64,000 nt of DNA from Lachnospiraceae bacterium (GCA_017623215.1 JAGAPO010000014.1:243-64242), one strand, 5' to 3'. Numbered from the stretch's first letter, positions 53,082 to 63,925 are shown. The notes: generated from the sequence alone by a model not told the origin. Made by a program: numbers and translations.

Positions 53082-54707
53082 ATGAATATGCACAAGAACA
53101 CCTCAACAAATCAGAAGTCGAACCAGACTTTCAGCCTTCCGCTCTCCACCAAGCGTTCACGCCGCGGAAGAAGAGCTTCCAAGCTTACCTCCCACATTCT
53201 TTCTCTGCTGCTTGCAATTCTGTTAACTTGCCCGATCCCATCCGGTGAAGGCGGGCTGCCGCTCAGTATGACCGCAAGCGCCGCAGGACAGGTCATTGCC
53301 GACGGCACTTACGCGATTTTACTTCACGACGATCAGAGCAAATGTCTCAACGACCTTTTCGCTTCGACCGCAGAAGACAAAGCACAGCTTGGGGTCGATC
53401 CCTTCAATCATGAATCCAACGAGATCTGGATTATCGTCAACCGCGGAGACGGCTATGTAACCATTTCTCCGAGCCACGCTCCGAACCTTTGCATCAATGC
53501 GCTGCTTGCAAATAAGACACCCGGCGATTATCTGACACTCCATGGCTGGACAGAAGGGGACGCCGCAAGTCTCTGGCTTCCCATCCGCAACTCTGACGGC
53601 AGCTATACCTTCCGCAACAAGGCGACAAATCTTGTTATTGACTGTAAGGACGGTTCCTATACAACGGGCAATAAGTTCTTAAGCTGGACGAAGAACGGCT
53701 ACGCCAGAGCACAGTCCTTCTATCTGAAGCAGCTTTCCGGCGGCTCAGATTCGGCTTCTTCTTCCCTGAAGAGCGGCACTTACGCGATTCTGCTCCATGA
53801 CGACCAGAGTAAATGCCTCAACGACCTTTTTGCTTCGACCGTGGAAGACAAGGCTCAGCTCGGTGTCGATCCCTTCAATCATGAGGCGAACGAGATCTGG
53901 ATCATTACCGTGCGCGACAACAATTATGTAACCATTTCTCCGAGCCACGCTCCGAACCTTTGTATCAATGCGCTGCTCGCGAACAAGACCCCCGGTGATT
54001 ATCTGACACTTCATGGCTGGACGGAAGGGGACGCTGCAAGTCTCTGGCTTCCCATTCTGAACGCTGACGGCAGCTATACCTTCCGCAACAAAGCGACAAA
54101 TCTTGTTATTGACTGCAAGGATGGTTCCTATACAACGGGCAATAAGTTCTTAAGCTGGACAAAGAACGGCTACGCCAGAGCACAATCCTTCTATTTGAAG
54201 GAAGTCACTGTCGACACCTGGGTATACCCGATGACCAATACCTATGTCTGCGGAAATGACTGGTCCGAGTATTACTCCCCCCGCGCAAAGGCAGGCCGTC
54301 CCGATCACGTCGGTATTGACATTGCCTCTTCCTCTGGCAGTACCGCAATATGCGCTGCAGCGGACGGATATGTAGAAAGTGTCGGCACGAACTCAAGCAA
54401 CGGCAAATACGTGATTATCCGCCATACCCTGAACGGCAAAACCGTGTACTCCTTCTACGCGCATTTATCCAAGATTACCGTATCGGCAAGGACTACCGTG
54501 TCGAAAGGCACACAGGTCGGCGTCCTTGGCGGAAGCGGTTCTTCCTCTGACGGCACTCACCTGCATTTTGCAGTCACGGATACTCTGTGGAGCAACGGCG
54601 GTTACTATGGTTATGTGTCCAGCTTCAGTGGAAATAAGGTGACGTACGGCGGCGTAACTTTTTATAATCCGCATTATGTAGTAGAGCATAACGCGCTGCC
54701 GAACTAA
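53082..54707 (+). CDS. Secreted protein: two ricin-type beta-trefoil lectin-like modules plus a C-terminal M23 metallopeptidase
   Basis: Signal-peptide-like N-terminus (KLTSHILSLLLAILLTCPIP). Two modules of about 142 aa with near-identical sequence. M23 motifs PDHVGIDI and GTHLHFAV. AAAGGAGA upstream of ATG 53082. Confidence 0.8.
   Translation: MNMHKNTSTNQKSNQTFSLPLSTKRSRRGRRASKLTSHILSLLLAILLTCPIPSGEGGLPLSMTASAAGQVIADGTYAILLHDDQSKCLNDLFASTAEDKAQLGVDPFNHESNEIWIIVNRGDGYVTISPSHAPNLCINALLANKTPGDYLTLHGWTEGDAASLWLPIRNSDGSYTFRNKATNLVIDCKDGSYTTGNKFLSWTKNGYARAQSFYLKQLSGGSDSASSSLKSGTYAILLHDDQSKCLNDLFASTVEDKAQLGVDPFNHEANEIWIITVRDNNYVTISPSHAPNLCINALLANKTPGDYLTLHGWTEGDAASLWLPILNADGSYTFRNKATNLVIDCKDGSYTTGNKFLSWTKNGYARAQSFYLKEVTVDTWVYPMTNTYVCGNDWSEYYSPRAKAGRPDHVGIDIASSSGSTAICAAADGYVESVGTNSSNGKYVIIRHTLNGKTVYSFYAHLSKITVSARTTVSKGTQVGVLGGSGSSSDGTHLHFAVTDTLWSNGGYYGYVSSFSGNKVTYGGVTFYNPHYVVEHNALPN
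53304..54201 (+). repeat. In-frame tandem duplication (period 471 nt) encoding the two lectin-like modules
   Basis: 53304-53730 aligns base for base with 53775-54201. Scattered substitutions are mostly synonymous transitions. Confidence 0.85.
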
Positions 54708-54918: not shown

Positions 54919-57900
54919 TCATTTCGGCTTTTTTCTATTCCTGTGAAGGTTGAACATCACAACCCTTATTAGGGTGGACCAGTTATGGAACCAGAGCTCA
55001 TCCATCTCCATCAGTCTTCTTATCATAGAGTGGCTGCAGAACTCTGCGTATTCCGGCTCCGGCTTTTTCCACACCTCTCCGTCTTCTTCATACTCGGTCT
55101 CTTCCTCCGGCAGATCCAGTGCTGTTCTCATTCCTCTTGCCTGCCGAAGCCACCGCATCGCTGTCTCATGATCTTTTTCCACCGCAAATCCCAGTTCATA
55201 ACACATCCCGATCAGCTTCTGCATTTCCACGTTTCCGAATTCAGCGCACAGTTCCATCCAGCCCGTTTCCTCCTGAAAATATTCTGACCGAACCGTAAGA
55301 AGAATATTACCGGGCAGCCAAAAGGCCTGGCCCGCACAAATATCCCTGTGCCTGTTCAGGAACTCCCGCAGTTCCCTGCTTAACTCGTCTGGCTGCCAGA
55401 TACGAACAAATCTGTCATTATCCATGGTATGCTCCATCAGTCCGCGCCATATTTCGGCAATTCTTGGAGGCCAGGCGTGATTCATACGCACAAGCGGTCT
55501 GGGATCGTCTTCTTCCAGCGCACTCTGCAGGCCCTCTGCAATCCACATTCCTGCGAAATAGTCCATGTAACAGTCGTGTACGAACCGGTAGTTCTCGTCT
55601 CCGTCATAATCCAGAATCGCAAGTCGGCGCACACATACATCCAGAATCTCGGCGAATTTCCACAGCAGAAGACGGCGGTTCCCGCAGGCTTCCCTTACCC
55701 AGCTTTCCAGCTCCTGCTCCGTATGTACCGCCTGATCCGATATCAGATAGTGATATCCGATAACCGGGAGATATTTTTCCAGAATCTGATGAATGTTCCT
55801 GCCCGTATCCCCGTATTCGTATTCTGCGAAATAGATGCTTAAAAGCTCCGCTGCGCTATTGGGTATTTCGTCGTAGTCGTCATAGTCTTCCTCATAATCG
55901 TCCTCTTCGCCGACTTCCTTTCCGACCTCGTCCTCTTCGCTGGCTTCCTCTTCGTCTTTCTCCCAATCGCCGCCGCAATCCTCTGATTTTTTCGCATAAT
56001 ACCGATCCGAGCCCGCCAGAATCTCCAGATAGCGCATCAGGAACAGAGGGAGCTTCAGCGTGTCATACTGCTGCCCAAGCCGTGCAAGCTCACGCCAATC
56101 CAGCCTTCGGTTCAGCGTCTGCTCCACTGCGCTTTGAATCTGCTCTTTGGTAAGCGGTACAATCCGAATTCGACATTCCGGCCGCAGCATTCTGACATAG
56201 GGCAGCGGCTCGTTACAGGACAGCGGCCGCAGCTGCTCCATGCCGAACTCCATGCTCCCCAATCTCTGTGGATCCTCCTCGCGGCCCGAGACAAGAATCC
56301 AGGTCCCTTTGTAGGTACGATCGGCGTGGTCGAGCGCGGCAAGTGCCTTCGCGTATATTTTTTCGGATACCTTATGCAGATTATCGAGCGCCAGAAAGAA
56401 ACGCGTCTCCCTGGCTTCTTTTACCTCCGTTCCTTCCGATAATAGACTCTCGATTTCTTCGCATATCTTCTCGTCCGCCGTATCCAGATATTGTACGGCA
56501 AGCATCCTCGCAATCGCCCGCTCCGGTGAGCCGGCCTCTTTTAGAAGCTTCTCCGTGAAGCCCAGCATATCCAGATAAAGCGGAATGCGTTTCCCGCTCT
56601 CCAGATACTCGCAGAATAACTCGGAGACCGCAAAGCTTTTGCCGCCTCCGCCGGGCGCCTGCAAATACCGGTTCGCGTTTGCCGGTTCTTCTCCCCACGT
56701 TTCGTCCAGTTCCAAACCTTCCAGCCCTCCCCATTCCTCTTCCTTAGGGGCCGCCTGCGCGTTCTCCGGAGCAAGTCTGCGCAGCAATTCTCCTACCGGA
56801 ATCGCCTCGCCCTCTTCCTGCTCCGCATCCTCTTCCTGCTCCGCATAAATCGTCAGCCGTCTCACCGCCAGCTCTTTTGTCAGTCCCGGCTGATGCTCCG
56901 TCGCGAACAGCTGGCGATTCTTCTTATAATAACGGATGGATGCTTCCCACAGATGCTCCGCCGTCACTCCCTTCGATAGTTTGAGCTTCCTTACCCGGTC
57001 AAATGTGCGAAGTGCCTCTCTCATCTCCCCGGCGTCCGCGTAACGCTCCTTCGGATCGTTGGCAAGCGCCTTTTTCAGAATCCGGTTCAGCATCCATTTT
57101 TCCGCAGAATCACAGCCAAGCCGTTCCGCCTGCCGTTCTGACAAGAGCTTTTCCTTCGGATGCAGCATCAGGAATTCCGTCATCTCCTCTTCTCCGAGTT
57201 CGATAAGCTCATCTTCTTTCCCTGTCAGCAGATTCAGAAGCAAAAATCCAAGCGACCACACATCGCATGCCGGCGACATTCGAAAATCCGCTCCCCGCTC
57301 CAAAAGCTCCGGTGCCCGATAGCCGTCCGTTGAGAAGATTTCATCTGTGATAATCTCTGTGTATCTTCCGTCCGTCAGTCTCCTTGCCGAACCGAAATCA
57401 ATAATATGAGCGGTTCCGGAGAACACCCCCGCCTCTCCCGCGCGGTTTCCCAACAGAAAGATATTATCGGCCTGGCAGTCCCCGTGAATATATCCGTCCT
57501 CGTGAAGCGCCGCGTAGGCGTCAAGGACCGTATGCATGATTAACACTGCAGTATCCAGGGGCAGACCTTCTCCCTGCGCCGTTTTCCCTTCTCTGCGATA
57601 CCGTCCCGCCGTGATTCCCTTCTCCGTCAGACTCTCCATCCGGGCATAGCTGTTCGTTACCGCCGGGTACACGGTTCCGTCCGGCAGGCAGATATTCGCC
57701 TGCTCATAGACCGGAGACTGAATTGGAATCACCTGATAATTCTTCCGGCTCGCCATCTGACCGAACGCTGCCTCCTGTGTGCATAGCTGCTCCTTTCGCT
57801 TTCCAAGTGCCGAGGCACGCACCCGGCAAAGCGCTTCCGAACCATCCGGAACGATTTCCCCGTTCACACGCTGGTACCCTTCTGCCGGATATATCTCCTT

Positions 57901-58044
57901 AATCGCCGCGTACAGCTCGGAATCCAACTCCTTTGCCTCATACAAAAGCGCGCTTCCCCCGCCTCCAATCAGGCCGAGGATCTTATACCTGCGTCCGTCC
58001 GGGAATTCCAGAACGCTTCCGTTCATTAATTCAGTTCTGCTCAT
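54919..58044 (-). CDS. Ser/Thr protein kinase fused to a NACHT-like STAND NTPase and a C-terminal helical/Sel1-like region (1041 aa)
   Basis: Kinase motifs: G-loop LIGGGGSALLYEA, AAIKE (K49), HGDCQADN (D189/N194), DFG (216-218), YRAPE. NTPase motifs: Walker A APGGGGKS (463-470; nt 56635-56658), Walker B FFLALDNLH, ILVSGRE (NACHT TSR-like), LPLFLMRYLEIL. Sel1-like segment: EMQKLIGMCYELGFAVEKDHETAMRWLRQA. AGGGAGGA lies 6 nt upstream of ATG 58044. Confidence 0.8.
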   Translation of the reverse strand: MSRTELMNGSVLEFPDGRRYKILGLIGGGGSALLYEAKELDSELYAAIKEIYPAEGYQRVNGEIVPDGSEALCRVRASALGKRKEQLCTQEAAFGQMASRKNYQVIPIQSPVYEQANICLPDGTVYPAVTNSYARMESLTEKGITAGRYRREGKTAQGEGLPLDTAVLIMHTVLDAYAALHEDGYIHGDCQADNIFLLGNRAGEAGVFSGTAHIIDFGSARRLTDGRYTEIITDEIFSTDGYRAPELLERGADFRMSPACDVWSLGFLLLNLLTGKEDELIELGEEEMTEFLMLHPKEKLLSERQAERLGCDSAEKWMLNRILKKALANDPKERYADAGEMREALRTFDRVRKLKLSKGVTAEHLWEASIRYYKKNRQLFATEHQPGLTKELAVRRLTIYAEQEEDAEQEEGEAIPVGELLRRLAPENAQAAPKEEEWGGLEGLELDETWGEEPANANRYLQAPGGGGKSFAVSELFCEYLESGKRIPLYLDMLGFTEKLLKEAGSPERAIARMLAVQYLDTADEKICEEIESLLSEGTEVKEARETRFFLALDNLHKVSEKIYAKALAALDHADRTYKGTWILVSGREEDPQRLGSMEFGMEQLRPLSCNEPLPYVRMLRPECRIRIVPLTKEQIQSAVEQTLNRRLDWRELARLGQQYDTLKLPLFLMRYLEILAGSDRYYAKKSEDCGGDWEKDEEEASEEDEVGKEVGEEDDYEEDYDDYDEIPNSAAELLSIYFAEYEYGDTGRNIHQILEKYLPVIGYHYLISDQAVHTEQELESWVREACGNRRLLLWKFAEILDVCVRRLAILDYDGDENYRFVHDCYMDYFAGMWIAEGLQSALEEDDPRPLVRMNHAWPPRIAEIWRGLMEHTMDNDRFVRIWQPDELSRELREFLNRHRDICAGQAFWLPGNILLTVRSEYFQEETGWMELCAEFGNVEMQKLIGMCYELGFAVEKDHETAMRWLRQARGMRTALDLPEEETEYEEDGEVWKKPEPEYAEFCSHSMIRRLMEMDELWFHNWSTLIRVVMFNLHRNRKKPK

Positions 58045-58093: not shown

Positions 58094-59554
58094 CTACCGG
58101 CCCTTTCGCGGCGCTGCCCGCATAATTTCCGGTACAAATGCCAGCGGATCTTTGCTGCACACAGCCGTCAGAATCATATGCTCAAACGGATTCGCCGCAT
58201 ATATCTGCGGCAATCCGGCCTTTAACAGCAGCCGGTCCGTCGAAGAATGAAAGCTCTGCAGCAGCTCATAATGCTCCTTTGGCGTCAATGCGGAAAAGTC
58301 CACCGACATCCCCAGTTTGTATAATCGAAGCATCAGAAAATCCTTCTTCGTAATCGTCTCCCGCGGGGTCTTTCTGCTCTTCTCCGTCTCCGCATCCTCC
58401 TCGAATAAGACACTTCTCAAATGCGCTCCGTCCAGAAGATTGGCGGTAATTCTCCGATCCAGATCGATTTCGCTGATTCGGAATGGCTGTTGCTCGTCTT
58501 CCCAGTCCTCACCCTCGTCCTCATCCGGATCCAGTCCTACCCCTTCGATTAAGATCCGATAAATCTCATTTCCGATGGTATTGTTGCTCGTCAGCACATT
58601 CGTCCGGCGGTTCAGACTGTCCTCGCTCTCCTCGTAACGTCTTAGCTTCACACCGCTCACCAGGCTGCTTCGCACCACCGAATAGTCCAGATACAGCACC
58701 TTCTCCGATTCCAGCTCTTCGTTCAAAAGCTTCCTCGCTGTCCGGCTGTATTCAGTGAACTGCTCCGCATTCTCCGCCAGATACTCCACGAAGGCCTCCT
58801 TCATCGCCTCGTCATCCGAGAATTCCCCGTAGGTGATATCATCAATTCCGCGCCGAAGAAGGCGGGTCTGCAGCGCGGGCCGTTCGTCCGGCAGGCTCCT
58901 CTTTTTTAACGCCTCCCCGTATTCCCGCAGAATTCCCCGCACTGCCGTCATTGTATGGTACGCCTCGTTATTATGGCAAAAATAATAGATACACTCTAAT
59001 ACGTTCCGGAAATTGTACACCGGGCTTTCCCCCACCGCATTCATAAAGTCATCCATATCTGCCGAATCGAAGCCGAGCGCCATGGACATCACAAATAGCA
59101 GCTTCCTGGAGATCGCCTTATTCTCAAGGTAAGTCAGATATAATTTTTTGGAGATTGCTCCTGCCTTTGGGTTCACCACCCCTTCTTTATTCATTGAAAA
59201 GCATTCATTCTCTACGGTAATCCGATACAGCAGGTCCGCGTAGGCCTCCTTTTCCTGCCCGGTCAATTCCGCCGCCGGAGTCACCGCATGGAAGGAATAG
59301 GTCTTTCCGCCCGCCGACATGGTGAACGGAACCGGCTCTTCTTCCCTGCCGCGCCCGGTCCCGTGCTCATACAGATATCGCCTCAGACAGAAGCTCAGGC
59401 TGTTCCACTCGGCCTCATTCTGTAGCACCGCCGCATATTCTTTTATCGTCTCTGTCTCCGCAAGACGCGAATTCACCTGAGCAAGCTTCTTCCTCCACTT
59501 ATTCTCAAGCTCCGCCTGCGTCTTTCGGGTGATACTGCTGCCATATTGATTCAT
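58094..59554 (-). CDS. Uncharacterised 486-aa, predominantly helical protein (no family recognised)
   Basis: ATG 59554 overlaps the PP2C stop (ATGA), giving MNQYGSSITRKTQAELENKW.... The upstream part of track ORF 58094..59677 overlaps the PP2C gene and is discounted. Confidence 0.7.
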   Translation of the reverse strand: MNQYGSSITRKTQAELENKWRKKLAQVNSRLAETETIKEYAAVLQNEAEWNSLSFCLRRYLYEHGTGRGREEEPVPFTMSAGGKTYSFHAVTPAAELTGQEKEAYADLLYRITVENECFSMNKEGVVNPKAGAISKKLYLTYLENKAISRKLLFVMSMALGFDSADMDDFMNAVGESPVYNFRNVLECIYYFCHNNEAYHTMTAVRGILREYGEALKKRSLPDERPALQTRLLRRGIDDITYGEFSDDEAMKEAFVEYLAENAEQFTEYSRTARKLLNEELESEKVLYLDYSVVRSSLVSGVKLRRYEESEDSLNRRTNVLTSNNTIGNEIYRILIEGVGLDPDEDEGEDWEDEQQPFRISEIDLDRRITANLLDGAHLRSVLFEEDAETEKSRKTPRETITKKDFLMLRLYKLGMSVDFSALTPKEHYELLQSFHSSTDRLLLKAGLPQIYAANPFEHMILTAVCSKDPLAFVPEIMRAAPRKGR

Positions 59555-60384
59555 CGGCACGTCCTTCCTTTCTTTTCCGGAATTCCCTCCTGCACTGGCA
59601 GTACCGTCAGATCCAGATACGGCACGGATGTGCAGTGAATCGCAATCATGCTGTAATCGTCCGGAGGTCCCTCCCATTCTGCATTCTGAAGTCTGTCCGC
59701 GAATTCCTCTTCCCAGGCAGGCCCGGTGGAATTCGCCAGATCATAGCCGCAGACCGGATCGATCTCATATCCATTCCACAAATATCTTGTGCAACCGTCG
59801 GACATCAGGAAAAATGAGGTGTCCGTCACATATTTTCCCCGATAGACCCGCGTACGGCGAATGCAGTGCTTCGACGAGGTCAGAACCGTGAACTGCCTGG
59901 TAATCCCGCTCTCCGGCGCGGAAAGCAGCCGCATTCGCTTCCCGGCCAAATCCTTCGAGGCACAGGCCGCAAGTCCGTCCCCAAGATGAAGACACAGGAA
60001 TCTCCCATCCCGGGTATCCACGACCAGAACCAGCAGGGTAGAGCCCAGCTCCTCCAGGCATTCCCTCAGGCCTAAGATTGCGGAATGCTCCCGAAGCTCC
60101 GCAAGAACCTTCCCCATAACCTCCTCTTTTACCGTTCCGATGCTCTCCCTCTCATAATAGCGTTCAAACGAATTCATCACATCCGTACACGCGCTCCGGC
60201 ACGCGACCTCTGCTCCAAGCCCTCCGTATCTCGCGCTTCCTGCACCATCCGCAAGCGCAATTCCATACAGACTCCCCGCTATTTTACTATAGATCCGATC
60301 CTGATTCGGCTCTCCGTTCTGACTATGGATGGCCCCCACCCTTGAAAACGATCGGATCGTTCGAACAACTCTCCGCATTCCCAC
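59551..60384 (-). CDS. PP2C-family (PP2C_2-type) Ser/Thr protein phosphatase
   Basis: SQNGEPNQDRIY...YGIALADGAGSARYGGLGAE and LLVLVVDT...LHLGDG...FFLMSDG are typical of bacterial PP2C_2 proteins. GTG 60384 lies 7 nt after AAAGGAGAA. Confidence 0.75.
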   Translation of the reverse strand: MGMRRVVRTIRSFSRVGAIHSQNGEPNQDRIYSKIAGSLYGIALADGAGSARYGGLGAEVACRSACTDVMNSFERYYERESIGTVKEEVMGKVLAELREHSAILGLRECLEELGSTLLVLVVDTRDGRFLCLHLGDGLAACASKDLAGKRMRLLSAPESGITRQFTVLTSSKHCIRRTRVYRGKYVTDTSFFLMSDGCTRYLWNGYEIDPVCGYDLANSTGPAWEEEFADRLQNAEWEGPPDDYSMIAIHCTSVPYLDLTVLPVQEGIPEKKGRTCR

Positions 60385-60520: not shown

Positions 60521-61642
60521 CTATCGCTTATAAAAACAATGATTCCCCAATATGTAATACTCCGAATAGGACGAAAGATTCGCCCGATCCTTCATAATAA
60601 AGTTCATAAAATCGCCAATATTATTATTACCGGCCAACGCTTCCACTGCCGCACGCTTGCAGCTCTCCGTGACCTTGGCAGAGAACTTCTCGATTCTTCC
60701 GGAATTCGCCCCCGAGAACTGATTCGGCGCATATACGACATCGGACAGCGTATCGCCCCAGATTCCGCTCAGCAGCCGGTTAATCAGCACATTCGCAACC
60801 GCAAGCTGCCCTTCGTAGCTCTCGCTTCCCGCCTCCATCGTAATCACAATCGCCATCAAGAAAATGTCCTCATCACTCATCGTAATTGCTTCCCGATTGG
60901 TGTCCGCAACTTCCACATGCTTCGCAGCCTCCAGCGCCTTCGCAAGCTCCTCCGCCTTCTTCTTCGCTTCTATCTCCTCCATGGACACCGCAGTCTCCAG
61001 TTCAAAGCTGCACTCCGTGAACTGCGCGGACAGATAGGCTGTCGTTCCATCCTCTAACTGAACCGCCGTCCACTCATCCGTCGTAGCCTCCGGCAGCTGC
61101 ACAAAGGTATCTCCCTTATGTGCCTCCGTCAGAACCGTTCCGCTTAAGCTCGGCGCTGTTCTGACATTCACGGTTCCGGCTGTCACCGTCGCCCGAAATG
61201 CTCCAAGCTCCTGCGCCTTCGCGATCGCTTTCTCGTCAAAATGCAGGTACTGATTGCTTGCGTATCCGATCACGTCTCCGGATTGAATCTTCGTCCACTC
61301 CGTGCCGCGCTCCAGAATCACCGCGTAGGAATCCCTGTACAGCTTCCCTACAATCTCCGCTGAAGTCGACGCCTCCGCACGCACATTCAGCGACTCCTGT
61401 ACATTCGCAATCACCTTGTCAAATACAATCTCCTCTGCGGCTGCGTTGAGCGCCGGTTCCTGCGCCGCAAGGCCCATATCTGCCTTGCCCGACACTTCTA
61501 TGTGGACCGTCGATCTCGCACTCCCCGCCATCCAGGCCGCCTTTGCAGGAACCGGCTTGACTCCCACCGCCAGAAGCAATCCGCACAGCAGGCCCGCCGT
61601 CAGCCAACCTATTCTATTCTTCTTTTCTCTTTTGCTCTTCAT
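60521..61642 (-). CDS. Secreted cell-wall hydrolase (SleB/CwlJ Hydrolase_2 domain) with SH3b-like repeats
   Basis: Signal peptide (GWLTAGLLCGLLLAVGVKPVPAKA). Two SH3-like modules (LNVRAEASTSAEIVGKL, VNVRTAPSLSGTVLT). C-terminal EAGSESYEGQLAVANVLINRL...VYAPNQFSG. Confidence 0.8.
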   Translation of the reverse strand: MKSKREKKNRIGWLTAGLLCGLLLAVGVKPVPAKAAWMAGSARSTVHIEVSGKADMGLAAQEPALNAAAEEIVFDKVIANVQESLNVRAEASTSAEIVGKLYRDSYAVILERGTEWTKIQSGDVIGYASNQYLHFDEKAIAKAQELGAFRATVTAGTVNVRTAPSLSGTVLTEAHKGDTFVQLPEATTDEWTAVQLEDGTTAYLSAQFTECSFELETAVSMEEIEAKKKAEELAKALEAAKHVEVADTNREAITMSDEDIFLMAIVITMEAGSESYEGQLAVANVLINRLLSGIWGDTLSDVVYAPNQFSGANSGRIEKFSAKVTESCKRAAVEALAGNNNIGDFMNFIMKDRANLSSYSEYYILGNHCFYKR

Positions 61643-61924
61643 CTTCCATCCTTTTCTCTCCGACCTCTAAAACTTATGACCGTCGGATACCATCTGCCAT
61701 TCGAACTTCTTTGCAGCACCATTCAAATATTACAAATTTGTTACAAATGGTATTGTAACAGAAAATGGAATTCCTGTCAACTCTGGATACCTCTGCGGCA
61801 GAGCTGCAGGCCAAACATGCCGATACTGCATCTGAAATTCCGCTGTCATGGCTGCAGTCAGGACAGCAAGAGAATTGTATATGCGGAATATCCTCCTCCT
61901 TTTTATGCACATGCATATAGACAA

Positions 61925-63112
61925 TTACTTGATTTCATTCCCGTCAGCATCATATTTCGTTTCTTTCACCAGTTTTTCTTCCTCATCATACTCGCAGACA
62001 ATCCTGCTGCCATCTTTGTTGTATTCGGTCGTCCTGGCCTTATAGCTCCAGCCTTCCTCATCGAGGGCATATTCCATCAGGGATGCGAGCCGGTCATCCT
62101 CATACACCTTGACACTGGACGGATTCCCGTCCTTATCATATTCGTATTGATAGCTCAGCACACGGTCGACTGTTCCATCGGCCCTGTAATAGGTCTCTGT
62201 GGCCACCTCGGTATTCTCTCCATATTCGGAGACCAGCTTCGTGCCATCTTCGTAATAGTCAATGACGGTCCCCGGACAACGCCAGGAACTGTACTCCTCC
62301 GAGCCGGATATGAACGATACGATCTCATGAACCAACACACTGTCTCTATAGGTCTTTTCCCAAAGCATCATACCATCGGCATCGTACTCCCGCTCGTAGC
62401 GTTCTTCAAACTCTTTCTTTTCGTCAGTACCGTACTTGATCCTGCTTGTAATGTCACCATATTCGTTATATTCGCATACATACTTCCCATCCTCAAACGT
62501 TTCCGTTGCCTTTGCTTCATAGGGCTCACCGTCCGCGTTGTATGCGTACTCATAGTATCCTTCAAATGTTACCGTTCCGCCGGCATCATAGGAAATCGCT
62601 TTTATTACGTTGCCATTGCCGTCATATTCATTCACAACCCAGGAACCATCCTCCTGATAGAATGTATTCTTTGTCACACAGCTCTCGCCATCCTCATTGA
62701 CAGCGTATTCGGTATCTCCGGCAAGGATATCATTATTATATTGTTTTTCCCTTAAAATGCTGCCGTCGGCGTCATATTCGTACTCATACCGCAGTTCACT
62801 CATCACATTGCCATCGGCATCGTAGGACGTCATTCTCGTTAAGTCGCCATATTCGCTGTAATTATAGACATCCATATAACCGTCGCCCAAATCCCAGATC
62901 TCGCTCCCGCAGACCGTGCACACCGCATCATCGCTCAGGCTATGAGCCGCAGCCTCCAGCTTTTCACCGCATTCGCACGTATGCCAGTGTTCCTTCGCAT
63001 CCCGGTCCCATTCCTCCGATGCGGAATGTGTATGCTTTTGGGAGCAGGCAGTCAACATTGCAAGGGGCAGTATGCCAGAAATCGTCATTATCAAAATTTT
63101 CTTAATCTTCAT
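61925..63112 (-). CDS. Lipoprotein with a Cys/His-rich N-terminal motif and YD/MORN-like repeats
   Basis: Lipobox LAMLTAC. HTHSASEEWDRDAKEHWHTCECGEKLEAAAHSLSDDAVCTVCG. At least 6 repeats of the type YEYEYDADGxxxxEKxY. Start set at ATG 63112. Confidence 0.65.
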   Translation of the reverse strand: MKIKKILIMTISGILPLAMLTACSQKHTHSASEEWDRDAKEHWHTCECGEKLEAAAHSLSDDAVCTVCGSEIWDLGDGYMDVYNYSEYGDLTRMTSYDADGNVMSELRYEYEYDADGSILREKQYNNDILAGDTEYAVNEDGESCVTKNTFYQEDGSWVVNEYDGNGNVIKAISYDAGGTVTFEGYYEYAYNADGEPYEAKATETFEDGKYVCEYNEYGDITSRIKYGTDEKKEFEERYEREYDADGMMLWEKTYRDSVLVHEIVSFISGSEEYSSWRCPGTVIDYYEDGTKLVSEYGENTEVATETYYRADGTVDRVLSYQYEYDKDGNPSSVKVYEDDRLASLMEYALDEEGWSYKARTTEYNKDGSRIVCEYDEEEKLVKETKYDADGNEIK

Positions 63113-63199
63113 CGTTCCATTCCTTTCTACTACAATATCGTTATGGTTCCTGTTCCTAACAGCAGTCAGGACTCTATCCATCGAAATGTATCCATACGT

Positions 63200-63925
63200 T
63201 TAGTCGTTATCCCCGATTTTTATCTTTATCCCGCCACCGTCTGACGAACCGGAAGACAGGAACGAAGCCAATGCCTGCGCAGTATTCGATACAGGCATTG
63301 ACTGTATGTAAACTTTGCCTGGACCTGTGATTACGGTATGAAACAGGCCTTCTCCTCCGAGGAATATATTTTTAACCCCTTTTACGGTCCGGATATCCAT
63401 GGAACAGGTCTCGCTCATTGCGGCAAGATAGCCCGTATCTACGATTATGCTTTCCCCTGCCGCAAGCTCATATTCTTTGCAGTAACCGTCTATCTCCACA
63501 AAGACCAGACCTCTTCCGGTCACCTTCTGCATGATAAACCCTTCTCCTCCGAAAACTCCGGCGCGAAACTTTTTCTGAAAATAAACAGACAGGTCCAATC
63601 CCTTTTCCATCGCGAGAAATCCAGACTTCTGAACAATAATTCCATTCCCGGGACTTACCTCAAACGGAATAATCGTCCCCGGAAAGCTCGACGCGAACGC
63701 AATCATCCCGCTGCCGCCCTTCGGGGTGTATTCGTTCAAAAATATGGATTCTCCCGAAAATATTCGTCCAAATGCTTTTTTGATTCCGCCTCCTGTATTG
63801 GTATCCATCTGCATATTCGGACTCATCCAACTCATAGAACCGCTCTCCGTACAAAGAGTCTGCCCCGCCTCCGGATAGCAAATAACAACAGGCAAATTAC
63901 CGCCTTCAATTTCATAATTCAGCAT
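63200..63925 (-). CDS. AIM24 / TIGR00266 (DUF124) family protein
   Basis: MLNYEIEGGNLPVVICYPEAGQTLCTESGSMSWMS...GEGLFHTVITGPGKVYIQSMP matches the family pattern by eye. Confidence 0.75.
   Translation of the reverse strand: MLNYEIEGGNLPVVICYPEAGQTLCTESGSMSWMSPNMQMDTNTGGGIKKAFGRIFSGESIFLNEYTPKGGSGMIAFASSFPGTIIPFEVSPGNGIIVQKSGFLAMEKGLDLSVYFQKKFRAGVFGGEGFIMQKVTGRGLVFVEIDGYCKEYELAAGESIIVDTGYLAAMSETCSMDIRTVKGVKNIFLGGEGLFHTVITGPGKVYIQSMPVSNTAQALASFLSSGSSDGGGIKIKIGDND

Follow-up and report, generated by a model that had tools for sequence, protein, structure and literature searches.

A 64,000-nucleotide stretch of DNA from a Lachnospiraceae bacterium (GCA_017623215.1, JAGAPO010000014.1:243-64242), referred to below as the window, encodes a 1041-residue protein in which an N-terminal Hanks-type protein kinase is fused to a central NACHT-like STAND nucleotide-binding module. 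We consider it on balance probable that this protein is a single-chain switch resembling the NOD-like receptors (NLRs), with phosphorylation as its output and a role either in defence and conflict or in surveillance of the cell envelope. A preliminary description made from the DNA sequence had read the gene as a fusion of a kinase with a NACHT-type STAND NTPase, and each motif that it quoted was found at the residue given in the open reading frame (ORF).

Because metagenomes contain about 30 homologues of the kinase-NACHT protein at 35-50% identity, the gene is real and conserved. Residue conservation was read throughout from a family alignment of 31 sequences, comprising the window protein and 30 homologues, and the full protein was modelled with AlphaFold2 (predicted local distance difference test, pLDDT, 79; predicted template modelling score, pTM, 0.78). 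The family is rare: among 185,579 species-representative genomes it was found in one, a metagenome-assembled genome of a Lawsonibacter sp. An origin from a phage or mobile element was considered and rejected, as no family member was found in IMG/VR. A near-identical copy (P0096) from an independent assembly has the same residue as the window protein (P0001) at 1038 of 1041 positions. The sole differences, V112I, N116D and T224M, all lie within the kinase domain, the first two in extra strands of the N-lobe and the third shortly past the DFG motif.

The central module is homologous to NACHT

When the full-length model was used as the Foldseek query, the top 50 matches were all kinases and STAND matches were masked; residues 452-905 were hence modelled alone (AlphaFold2, pLDDT 73.5). 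This separate model retrieved NLRP7, NLRP14, NLRC4, NOD2, NLRP9 and NAIP5 first, with expect values (E) of 1e-8 to 1e-5 and query-normalised template modelling (TM) scores of 0.42-0.47 over about 450-500 columns, and with ORC/Cdc6, NB-ARC and Dark ranking lower. A search of 1.84 billion representative proteins with the family profile returned about 25 family members and then hundreds of others with E values between 1e-12 and 1e-8. Relatives sampled from that search passed the Pfam NACHT gathering score, one of them carrying a short NACHT-associated C-terminal domain (SNaCT13) and another having a SMEK_N-NACHT-WD40 architecture. Profile-profile alignment of the family with 16 NACHT proteins by hhalign gave 99.7% probability and E 3.9e-27 over 298 columns, pairing Walker A, Walker B, IVTSRP with ILVSGRE, NPLLL with LPLFL (P666) and FxHRSFQEYFAA with FVHDCYMDYFAG (H823). 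The structure search on the model, the profile search and the profile-profile alignment, three independent lines, place the central module with NACHT, and the NACHT assignment of the preliminary description was borne out by all three.

The motifs of the module were placed residue by residue. Walker A, APGGGGKS, occupies residues 463-470 and fits GxxGxGK[ST]; the Walker B Asp, D554, lies in LALDN (551-555) and is shared by 90% or more of the members. The sensor-1 strand ILVSGRE (583-589) contains an invariant Arg, R588. LPLFL supplies P666, and the winged-helix domain contains FVHDCY, in which the His of YRFVHDCYMDYFAG, H823, is again present in at least 90% of members, so that both a sensor-1 Arg and a winged-helix His are in place.

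An assignment of this domain to a generic AAA or ParA/MinD-like P-loop class, outside STAND and NACHT, would draw on the lack of a Pfam NACHT match in the window protein, on per-member scans dominated by weak AAA_22 and AAA_16 matches, and on matches to MipZ and McrB that amount to noise. Direct assignment of the NTPase with Pfam, NCBIfam and PADLOC produced only weak AAA_16, AAA_22 and nSTAND4 matches, and a search of PDB sequences with the family profile produced only insignificant P-loop matches to MipZ and McrB. In scans at E up to 10, two of 11 family members gave weak NACHT matches (best E 4.5e-4). Against such an assignment, NLRs were retrieved first across the nucleotide-binding, helical and winged-helix domains, hhalign aligned 298 columns, the winged-helix His motif among them, at 99.7% probability, and the sensor-1 Arg and PLFL are conserved; we regard it as effectively refuted. 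The preliminary description had named profile searches placing the domain in a non-STAND AAA family as the outcome that would overturn it, and hhalign and Foldseek favour NACHT instead.

A His-Lys pair replaces the acidic residues of the extended Walker B motif

The motif D[GAS]hDE has been used as the criterion that defines NACHT (Kibby et al., bioRxiv 10.1101/2022.07.19.500537). The window protein departs from it, with D554-N-L-H557-K558 aligned column for column with DGFDE by hhalign, and the motif of the kinase-fused clade as a whole is D[NDG]LHK. Of the 166 profile-aligned proteins, 33 with a kinase and six others have the His-Lys pair, while relatives with no detected kinase motif had Asp-Glu (76) or Asn-Glu (38) at these positions; His-Lys was found in none of the aligned canonical NACHT relatives. 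This replacement, which the preliminary description had missed, sets the protein apart more than any other of its molecular features. The acidic pair of NACHT modules is generally taken to support hydrolysis, and because His-Lys stands in its place here, NTP turnover would be expected to be slow or absent. This suggests a switch that binds nucleotide but has little or no hydrolytic turnover. The His-Lys clade offers a natural experiment on whether NLR switching needs NTP hydrolysis.

The kinase domain is conserved and predicted to be active

Pfam Pkinase (PF00069) matched the window protein at 72.5 bits (cut-off 31.7), with the aligned part confined to the C-lobe (residues 161-336); in the homologue P0015 the match covers residues 20-328. 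With the full-length model as query, Foldseek retrieved PknB (5u94; E 1e-10, target-normalised TM-score 0.70), then ULK1, IRAK4 and Stk1, consistent with a bilobal kinase fold in the model; for ULK1 and IRAK4, too, the target-normalised TM-score was about 0.7. The motifs run from a glycine-rich loop, GLIGGGGSA (25-33), through the beta-3 Lys K49 to the catalytic loop HGDCQADN (187-194, with D189 and N194), DFG (216-218) and APE (244-246). No variation occurs at H187, G188, D189, C190, N194, D216 or F217, and at least 90% of the 31 members keep K49, E91, Q191 and G218, E91 being the helix-C Glu with which we infer that K49 forms a salt bridge. The catalytic set of glycine-rich loop, beta-3 Lys, helix-C Glu, catalytic Asp and Asn, DFG Asp and APE is complete, each element being either invariant or present in at least 90% of the sequences; because of this the site looks selected for catalysis. 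The kinase looks catalytically intact, and phosphotransfer activity is predicted. The preliminary description had listed the core Hanks motifs as all present, which held residue by residue.

The catalytic loop departs from the canonical HRDLKxxN at two positions, with Gly in place of Arg (a non-Arg-Asp, or non-RD, loop of the HGD type) and Gln191 in place of Lys. The preliminary description gave the sequence of this Lys-less loop correctly and regarded it as unusual, but HGDCQxxN runs through the whole of the close family and is not peculiar to the window protein. More distant kinase-NACHT members retain the Lys, for example in HGDCKPGN, HGDIKPDN and HLDIKPDN loops, and the change from Lys to Gln is a derived trait of the subfamily to which the window protein belongs. 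The enlarged N-lobe that had also been singled out fared similarly: K49 and D189 are indeed 140 residues apart and the model contains the extra elements, but the spacing is 127-140 residues across the clade and an enlarged N-lobe was found in every relative checked, including those fused to TIR domains. In the AlphaFold2 model the additional elements are a beta-hairpin after beta-3 (57-66), a 32-residue helix carrying Glu91 (70-101) and two strands (109-119); about half of the extra residues precede the helix-C Glu and about half follow it. A large N-lobe and an HGD or HLD loop are thus features of the clade and not oddities of one gene.

The same unusual type of kinase, as a sister clade, heads proteins of other bacteria. 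In P0032-P0035 it is followed by a transmembrane segment and a beta-propeller, P0033-P0035 having a TIR domain as well, and in P0038 and P0040 by an NB-ARC-like P-loop domain and TPR repeats. The kinases of P0032-P0035 share with that of the window protein the enlarged N-lobe (132-135 residues from Lys to Asp) and a KE[CF][YF]P beta-3 motif, and these proteins and P0038/P0040 likewise have non-RD, Lys-less loops (HLD[LI]QxGN and HGDISxGN, respectively). They differ from the window protein in their downstream modules (TIR, transmembrane and propeller in the one group, NB-ARC-like in the other), and the kinases themselves are only 29-33% identical to that of the window protein. This pattern suggests that the kinase head has been shuffled among NLR-like and conflict-type architectures.

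A pseudokinase scaffold joined to a non-hydrolysing NACHT adaptor, acting by regulated assembly or recruitment, would account for the Gln that replaces the catalytic-loop Lys in the whole subfamily and for the His-Lys pair in place of Asp-Glu. Most kinase domains of the conflict systems analysed by Kaur et al. (2020, PMC7159879) are reported to have disrupted catalytic residues. In some distant members of the clade, either DFG or the His of the catalytic loop has been lost. K49, E91, D189, N194, DFG and APE are nevertheless invariant or shared by 90% or more of the subfamily members, whereas a decaying active site would look different, and the preliminary description had itself named loss of catalytic residues in homologues as the sign of a pseudokinase, whereas in the homologues they are conserved. 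A PP2C-type phosphatase gene, apparently coupled in translation to the adjoining partner gene in the window and present in a further locus (L042), is moreover sensible only if something is phosphorylated. Bud32, RIO and APH are HGD-type kinases without the catalytic-loop Lys and are active, which further weakens the pseudokinase account, and we judge it improbable.

The acidic insert and the C-terminal region

The preliminary description had reported a helical arm interrupted by an acidic run. Such a run, DWEKDEEE...DYDE, does lie at about residues 693-727, with 22 Asp or Glu and three Tyr in the 36 residues 693-728, but it is a feature of the window protein and not of the family. It interrupts the first helical domain in the loop directly past the LPLFLMRYLE helix, and a counterpart of the segment at about 682-727 was found in none of the 30 aligned homologues; other family members have unrelated, partly acidic insertions in a different loop, past sensor 1. 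Most of residues 682-725 were modelled with a pLDDT below 50, and the underlying DNA contains short imperfect internal repeats such as GCGAAGAGGACGA. An assembly artefact was rejected as the explanation, since the independent assembly contains an identical insert, and P0096 likewise shares the C-terminal tail. The insert looks like a lineage-specific local repeat expansion in a permissive loop; it is predicted to be disordered, is strain-specific and is without a conserved role.

Between the kinase and the NACHT-like module lies a linker whose sole family match was a weak one to CTD10 (E 0.022). Downstream of the insert, the preliminary description had proposed a largely novel sensor over residues 730-1041, which is not what was found. 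Residues 730-845 are the remainder of the first helical domain and the winged-helix domain, family conservation and the NLR structural alignments both extend over the whole of 730-905, residues 908-970 are a Sel1 remnant, and 972-1041 form a predicted-disordered tail. The single Sel1-like repeat that had been described at about residues 935-970 (nucleotides 55135-55242) is at that place: Pfam Sel1 (PF08238) matched residues 944-969 at 19.8 bits, under the cut-off of 30.7 and with no tandem repetition, and the Sel1 protein 6ok3 in the PDB matched residues 924-971. Six of the seven homologues scanned passed the Pfam Sel1 threshold, with 2-16 repeats. Searched by tblastn with the Sel1 arrays of homologues, the window showed similarity that stops at nucleotide 55138; a frameshifted or truncated array downstream was rejected, as no Sel1 similarity was found past that point in any frame. 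The tail had no similarity to the C-termini of homologues in any reading frame (tblastn). The window protein is thus a family member whose Sel1 array has been nearly lost, and not a protein with a novel sensor.

Table 1. Features of the kinase-NACHT gene and of its surroundings (positions counted from the first nucleotide of the window)
Feature	Position	Strand	Evidence or remark
Kinase-NACHT gene	54919-58044	-	1041-residue ORF, ATG start, GGGAGG ribosome-binding site 8 nucleotides upstream
Hanks-type protein kinase domain, residues 1-352	56989-58044	-	Pfam Pkinase, Foldseek, conservation, AlphaFold2
Linker, residues 353-454	56683-56988	-	Helical with a short strand, then disordered, acidic at 433-452 (AlphaFold2 pLDDT)
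NACHT-like STAND module (nucleotide-binding, first helical, winged-helix), residues 455-845	55510-56682	-	hhalign, Foldseek, motif conservation
Acidic low-complexity insert, residues 682-727	55864-56001	-	Alignment, pLDDT, DNA repeats, second assembly
Second helical domain and beta-hairpin, residues 846-905	55330-55509	-	AlphaFold2; inside Foldseek NLR alignments; W858, L869 and L892 conserved
Remnant Sel1-like repeats (about 1-2), residues 908-970	55135-55323	-	Pfam Sel1, 6ok3, tblastn
Predicted-disordered unique tail, residues 972-1041, with stop codon	54919-55131	-	pLDDT 31-40
Secreted lectin (RicinB_lectin_2, two copies) with Peptidase_M23 endopeptidase	53082-54707	+	Pfam; convergent with kinase-NACHT gene
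Orphan partner protein, 486 residues	58094-59554	-	Directly upstream of kinase-NACHT gene
PP2C-type Ser/Thr phosphatase	59551-60384	-	Pfam PP2C_2, E 8e-30
SH3_3 (two copies) with SleB-like cell-wall hydrolase	60521-61642	-	Directly upstream of PP2C
418-residue protein with MORN_2/DUF2963-type repeats	61925-63181	-	Upstream
AIM24-family protein	63200-63925	-	Upstream

A partner gene, phosphatases and cell-wall hydrolases adjoin the kinase-NACHT gene

The partner gene (Table 1) lies in a mechanical ORF of 527 residues (58094-59677), of which homologues align only from Met42 (nucleotide 59554), probably the true start. In eight of nine other loci a homologue of the partner, at 32-51% identity, adjoins the kinase-NACHT gene, usually with overlapping stop and start codons. 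About 20 relatives of the partner were found among 5.8 billion proteins, all beside kinase-NACHT genes and none outside the family, and searches of Pfam (with all 19 members), NCBIfam and PADLOC and a profile search of PDB sequences yielded no match. The stop codon of the PP2C gene overlaps the start of the partner gene (ATGA), which suggests translational coupling, and a gap of 49 nucleotides with a ribosome-binding site separates the partner from the kinase-NACHT gene. The same order of PP2C, partner and kinase-NACHT recurs in locus L042, and the three genes form an apparent operon. The best sigma-70-like promoter match of the region (61752-61780; TTGACA-17-TACAAT with an upstream TG) stands ahead of the SH3/SleB-like gene, which may be the first of the transcription unit.

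A lectin gene with an M23 or NlpC/P60 domain neighbours the kinase-NACHT gene not only in the window, where it lies on the side away from the partner gene, but in eight of the nine other loci; three of the nine have a Metallophos gene and four a PHP gene. The lectin gene of the window contains a 300-nucleotide direct repeat (53303-53602 and 53774-54073) of 86% identity at a spacing of 471 nucleotides, in which the Ricin-B (beta-trefoil) lectin module has recently been duplicated in tandem. In six loci (L002, L003, L004, L007, L039 and L040) the conserved downstream set comprises a small acidic protein whose transmembrane helices are C-terminal, the lectin-hydrolase, a second small protein of coiled-coil/transmembrane type, a Metallophos phosphoesterase (in some), a PHP phosphoesterase resembling RNase RNM or pAp-phosphatase, and a protein of about 130 residues. 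From that set only the lectin-hydrolase was found in the window, the membrane proteins, Metallophos, PHP and the protein of about 130 residues being absent. Directly upstream of the partner/kinase-NACHT pair of L002 (4701-6300) lie a split HipA_C toxin pair and an HTH_31 antitoxin-like gene. An AIM24 homologue of 56% identity (L041, 2126-2803) lies beside the gene of P0031, the family member that diverges most, which hints that AIM24 synteny is conserved. Over the whole window (1-64000) the GC skew is negative in 26 of 32 bins of 2 kb, with a cumulative value of -4.1, and long ORFs lie mostly on the minus strand, consistent with a window on one replichore that is read against the leading strand.

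A proposed switch and the alternatives to it

We propose that the NACHT module, following STAND and NLR precedent, would rest in a closed, ADP-bound form, and that a ligand sensed by the Sel1 region, the partner or both would trigger nucleotide exchange and oligomerisation. Oligomerisation would bring the kinase heads close to one another and activate them by proximity, and their phosphorylation would be directed at the kinases themselves, the partner and/or further targets, the partner serving as co-sensor or substrate. PP2C would reverse the phosphorylation and reset the system, a task that Metallophos or PHP may take on in other loci. The switch would operate in gut bacteria resembling Oscillospiraceae. 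A role in conflict or defence is favoured because of the NACHT and TIR associations of the kinase clade, the sparseness of the family and the variable number of Sel1 repeats (from about 1-2 to 16), and a role in envelope signalling is favoured because of the hydrolase neighbourhood.

Several observations weigh against this proposal. Pfam NACHT (PF05729) gave no match to the window protein at E up to 0.1, PADLOC likewise did not recognise its NACHT module, and the D[GAS]hDE signature is missing. The absent catalytic-loop Lys means that kinase activity could be weak or altered, and with almost no repeat sensor remaining in the window protein, it is doubtful that Sel1 senses a ligand here. The flanking genes encode a P-type ATPase, a HAD protein, the AIM24-family protein and cell-wall hydrolases, with no recognisable defence island; no kinase-NACHT family member was found on the viral contigs of IMG/VR; and the roles proposed for the partner and the lectin-hydrolase are based on gene neighbourhood.

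The protein could instead be an anti-phage abortive-infection NLR of the bNACHT or Avs kind, in which the partner or the Sel1/C-terminal region would recognise a phage protein and the kinase would phosphorylate host or phage proteins as Stk2 does, possibly with lysis through the lectin-M23 protein. The bacterial NACHT proteins tested to date are anti-phage and kinases are catalogued among NACHT effectors, and the defence-kinase models PD-T4-6, MAD6, MkoA and Stk2 of PADLOC match the kinase domain at E values down to 1.8e-25. TIR-fused relatives of the kinase, a patchy distribution, variable repeats and the HipA toxin-antitoxin genes beside one homologue fit this account as well. The PADLOC matches, however, cover only the generic kinase C-lobe, with none to the STAND part, the partner or PP2C, and the genes around the window protein are housekeeping and cell-wall genes with no mobile-element signature and no viral copies. 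We regard this account as possible, though not probable.

Cell-envelope signalling is a further alternative, in which the cytosolic Sel1/NACHT region would sense a peptidoglycan-derived or envelope-stress cue much as NOD proteins do, phosphorylation of the partner, which may be a regulator, would control the lectin-hydrolase and membrane proteins, and PP2C would reset the system in the manner of the PknB/Stp1 pairs of Firmicutes. It would explain why a lectin gene with M23 or NlpC/P60 recurs beside the kinase-NACHT gene, why the SH3/SleB-like hydrolase gene of the window, which follows the best promoter-like site, immediately precedes the other genes on their strand, and why small membrane-anchored proteins flank the lectin gene, together with phosphoesterases, in other loci; Sel1 has also been listed among peptidoglycan-associating domains (Kaur et al. 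2020, PMC7159879). Gene neighbourhood is nevertheless its sole basis, and the Sel1 array is nearly gone in the window protein. The lectin gene of the window is convergent with the kinase-NACHT gene and so belongs to a different transcript, domain and profile searches detected no DNA-binding domain in the partner, and the family is far too rare for a core envelope pathway. We consider envelope signalling as the whole explanation unlikely.

Returning to the single-chain switch with a phosphorylation output, a more ambitious version of it, which we hold to be rather doubtful, is that the locus represents an undescribed multi-gene system of gut Clostridia. Such a system would combine a kinase-output NLR-like receptor built on a His-Lys NACHT, probably a non-hydrolysing or differently gated switch, an obligate orphan partner, phosphatases and a secreted lectin-peptidoglycan hydrolase. 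In a single bacterial chain it would do what a NOD receptor and its kinase do together, and would connect sensing inside the cell with lysis or remodelling of the cell wall. Should the kinase prove active, the outputs of prokaryotic NLRs, so far nucleases, NADases, proteases and pore-formers, would come to include phosphorylation, and the protein would serve as a compact model of kinase activation by NACHT oligomerisation. An unexplored pathway in the abundant, little-studied gut Oscillospiraceae is indicated by the obligate partner and the linked lectin-peptidoglycan hydrolase. The features that first drew attention to the gene matter less, the loop and N-lobe being lineage traits and the insert a disordered, strain-specific expansion.

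Comparison with known systems

The kinase-NACHT architecture is known in kind: Ser/Thr/Tyr kinases have been catalogued among the effector domains of bacterial NACHT proteins, where bNACHT01 typifies a clade with a short C-terminal domain (Kibby et al., bioRxiv 10.1101/2022.07.19.500537). The window protein shares with the bNACHT proteins the homologous central module and the tripartite layout of N-terminal effector, NACHT and C-terminal repeats; it differs in that its family has D[NDG]LHK and dedicated genes for an orphan partner and a phosphatase, and in that its module is undetected by Pfam and PADLOC. We know of no kinase-bearing bNACHT that has been characterised. A literature search found no experimental paper on a bacterial NLR with a kinase effector and no description of the clade-wide His-Lys variant, the orphan partner or the set of phosphatase and lectin-hydrolase genes, and the main text of a 2026 Nature survey of STAND proteins does not discuss kinase effectors.

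Among anti-phage kinases, Stk2, PD-T4-6 and MAD6 of the MADS system resemble the window protein in the kinase C-lobe, which matches their models (PD-T4-6, E 1.8e-25; PADLOC mad6, 2e-24; NCBIfam MAD6, 1.9e-14), but the match is limited to residues of about 157-357, the NCBIfam scores are far under their cut-offs, and those systems contain neither a NACHT module nor such a partner. PknK of Mycobacterium tuberculosis and other MalT/LAL-type fusions also join an N-terminal Hanks-type Ser/Thr kinase to a STAND NTPase and helical repeats; the NTPase of PknK is of the MalT/LuxR-LAL type and its kinase is an RD kinase.

The best structural matches to the nucleotide-binding, helical, winged-helix and second helical domains are the animal NLRs NOD2, NLRC4 and NLRP7/9/14 (5irn, 4kxf, 9lq2, 7wbu and 9ln6), with which the window protein shares the winged-helix His and the sensor-1 Arg. 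Identity to them is only 9-13%, their sensor is made of leucine-rich repeats whereas that of the family described here is Sel1, their kinase is recruited through CARD whereas it is fused here, and they have Asp-Glu where the window protein has His-Lys. In concept, the arrangement is similar to NOD2-RIPK2, in which a NACHT sensor likewise feeds a kinase.

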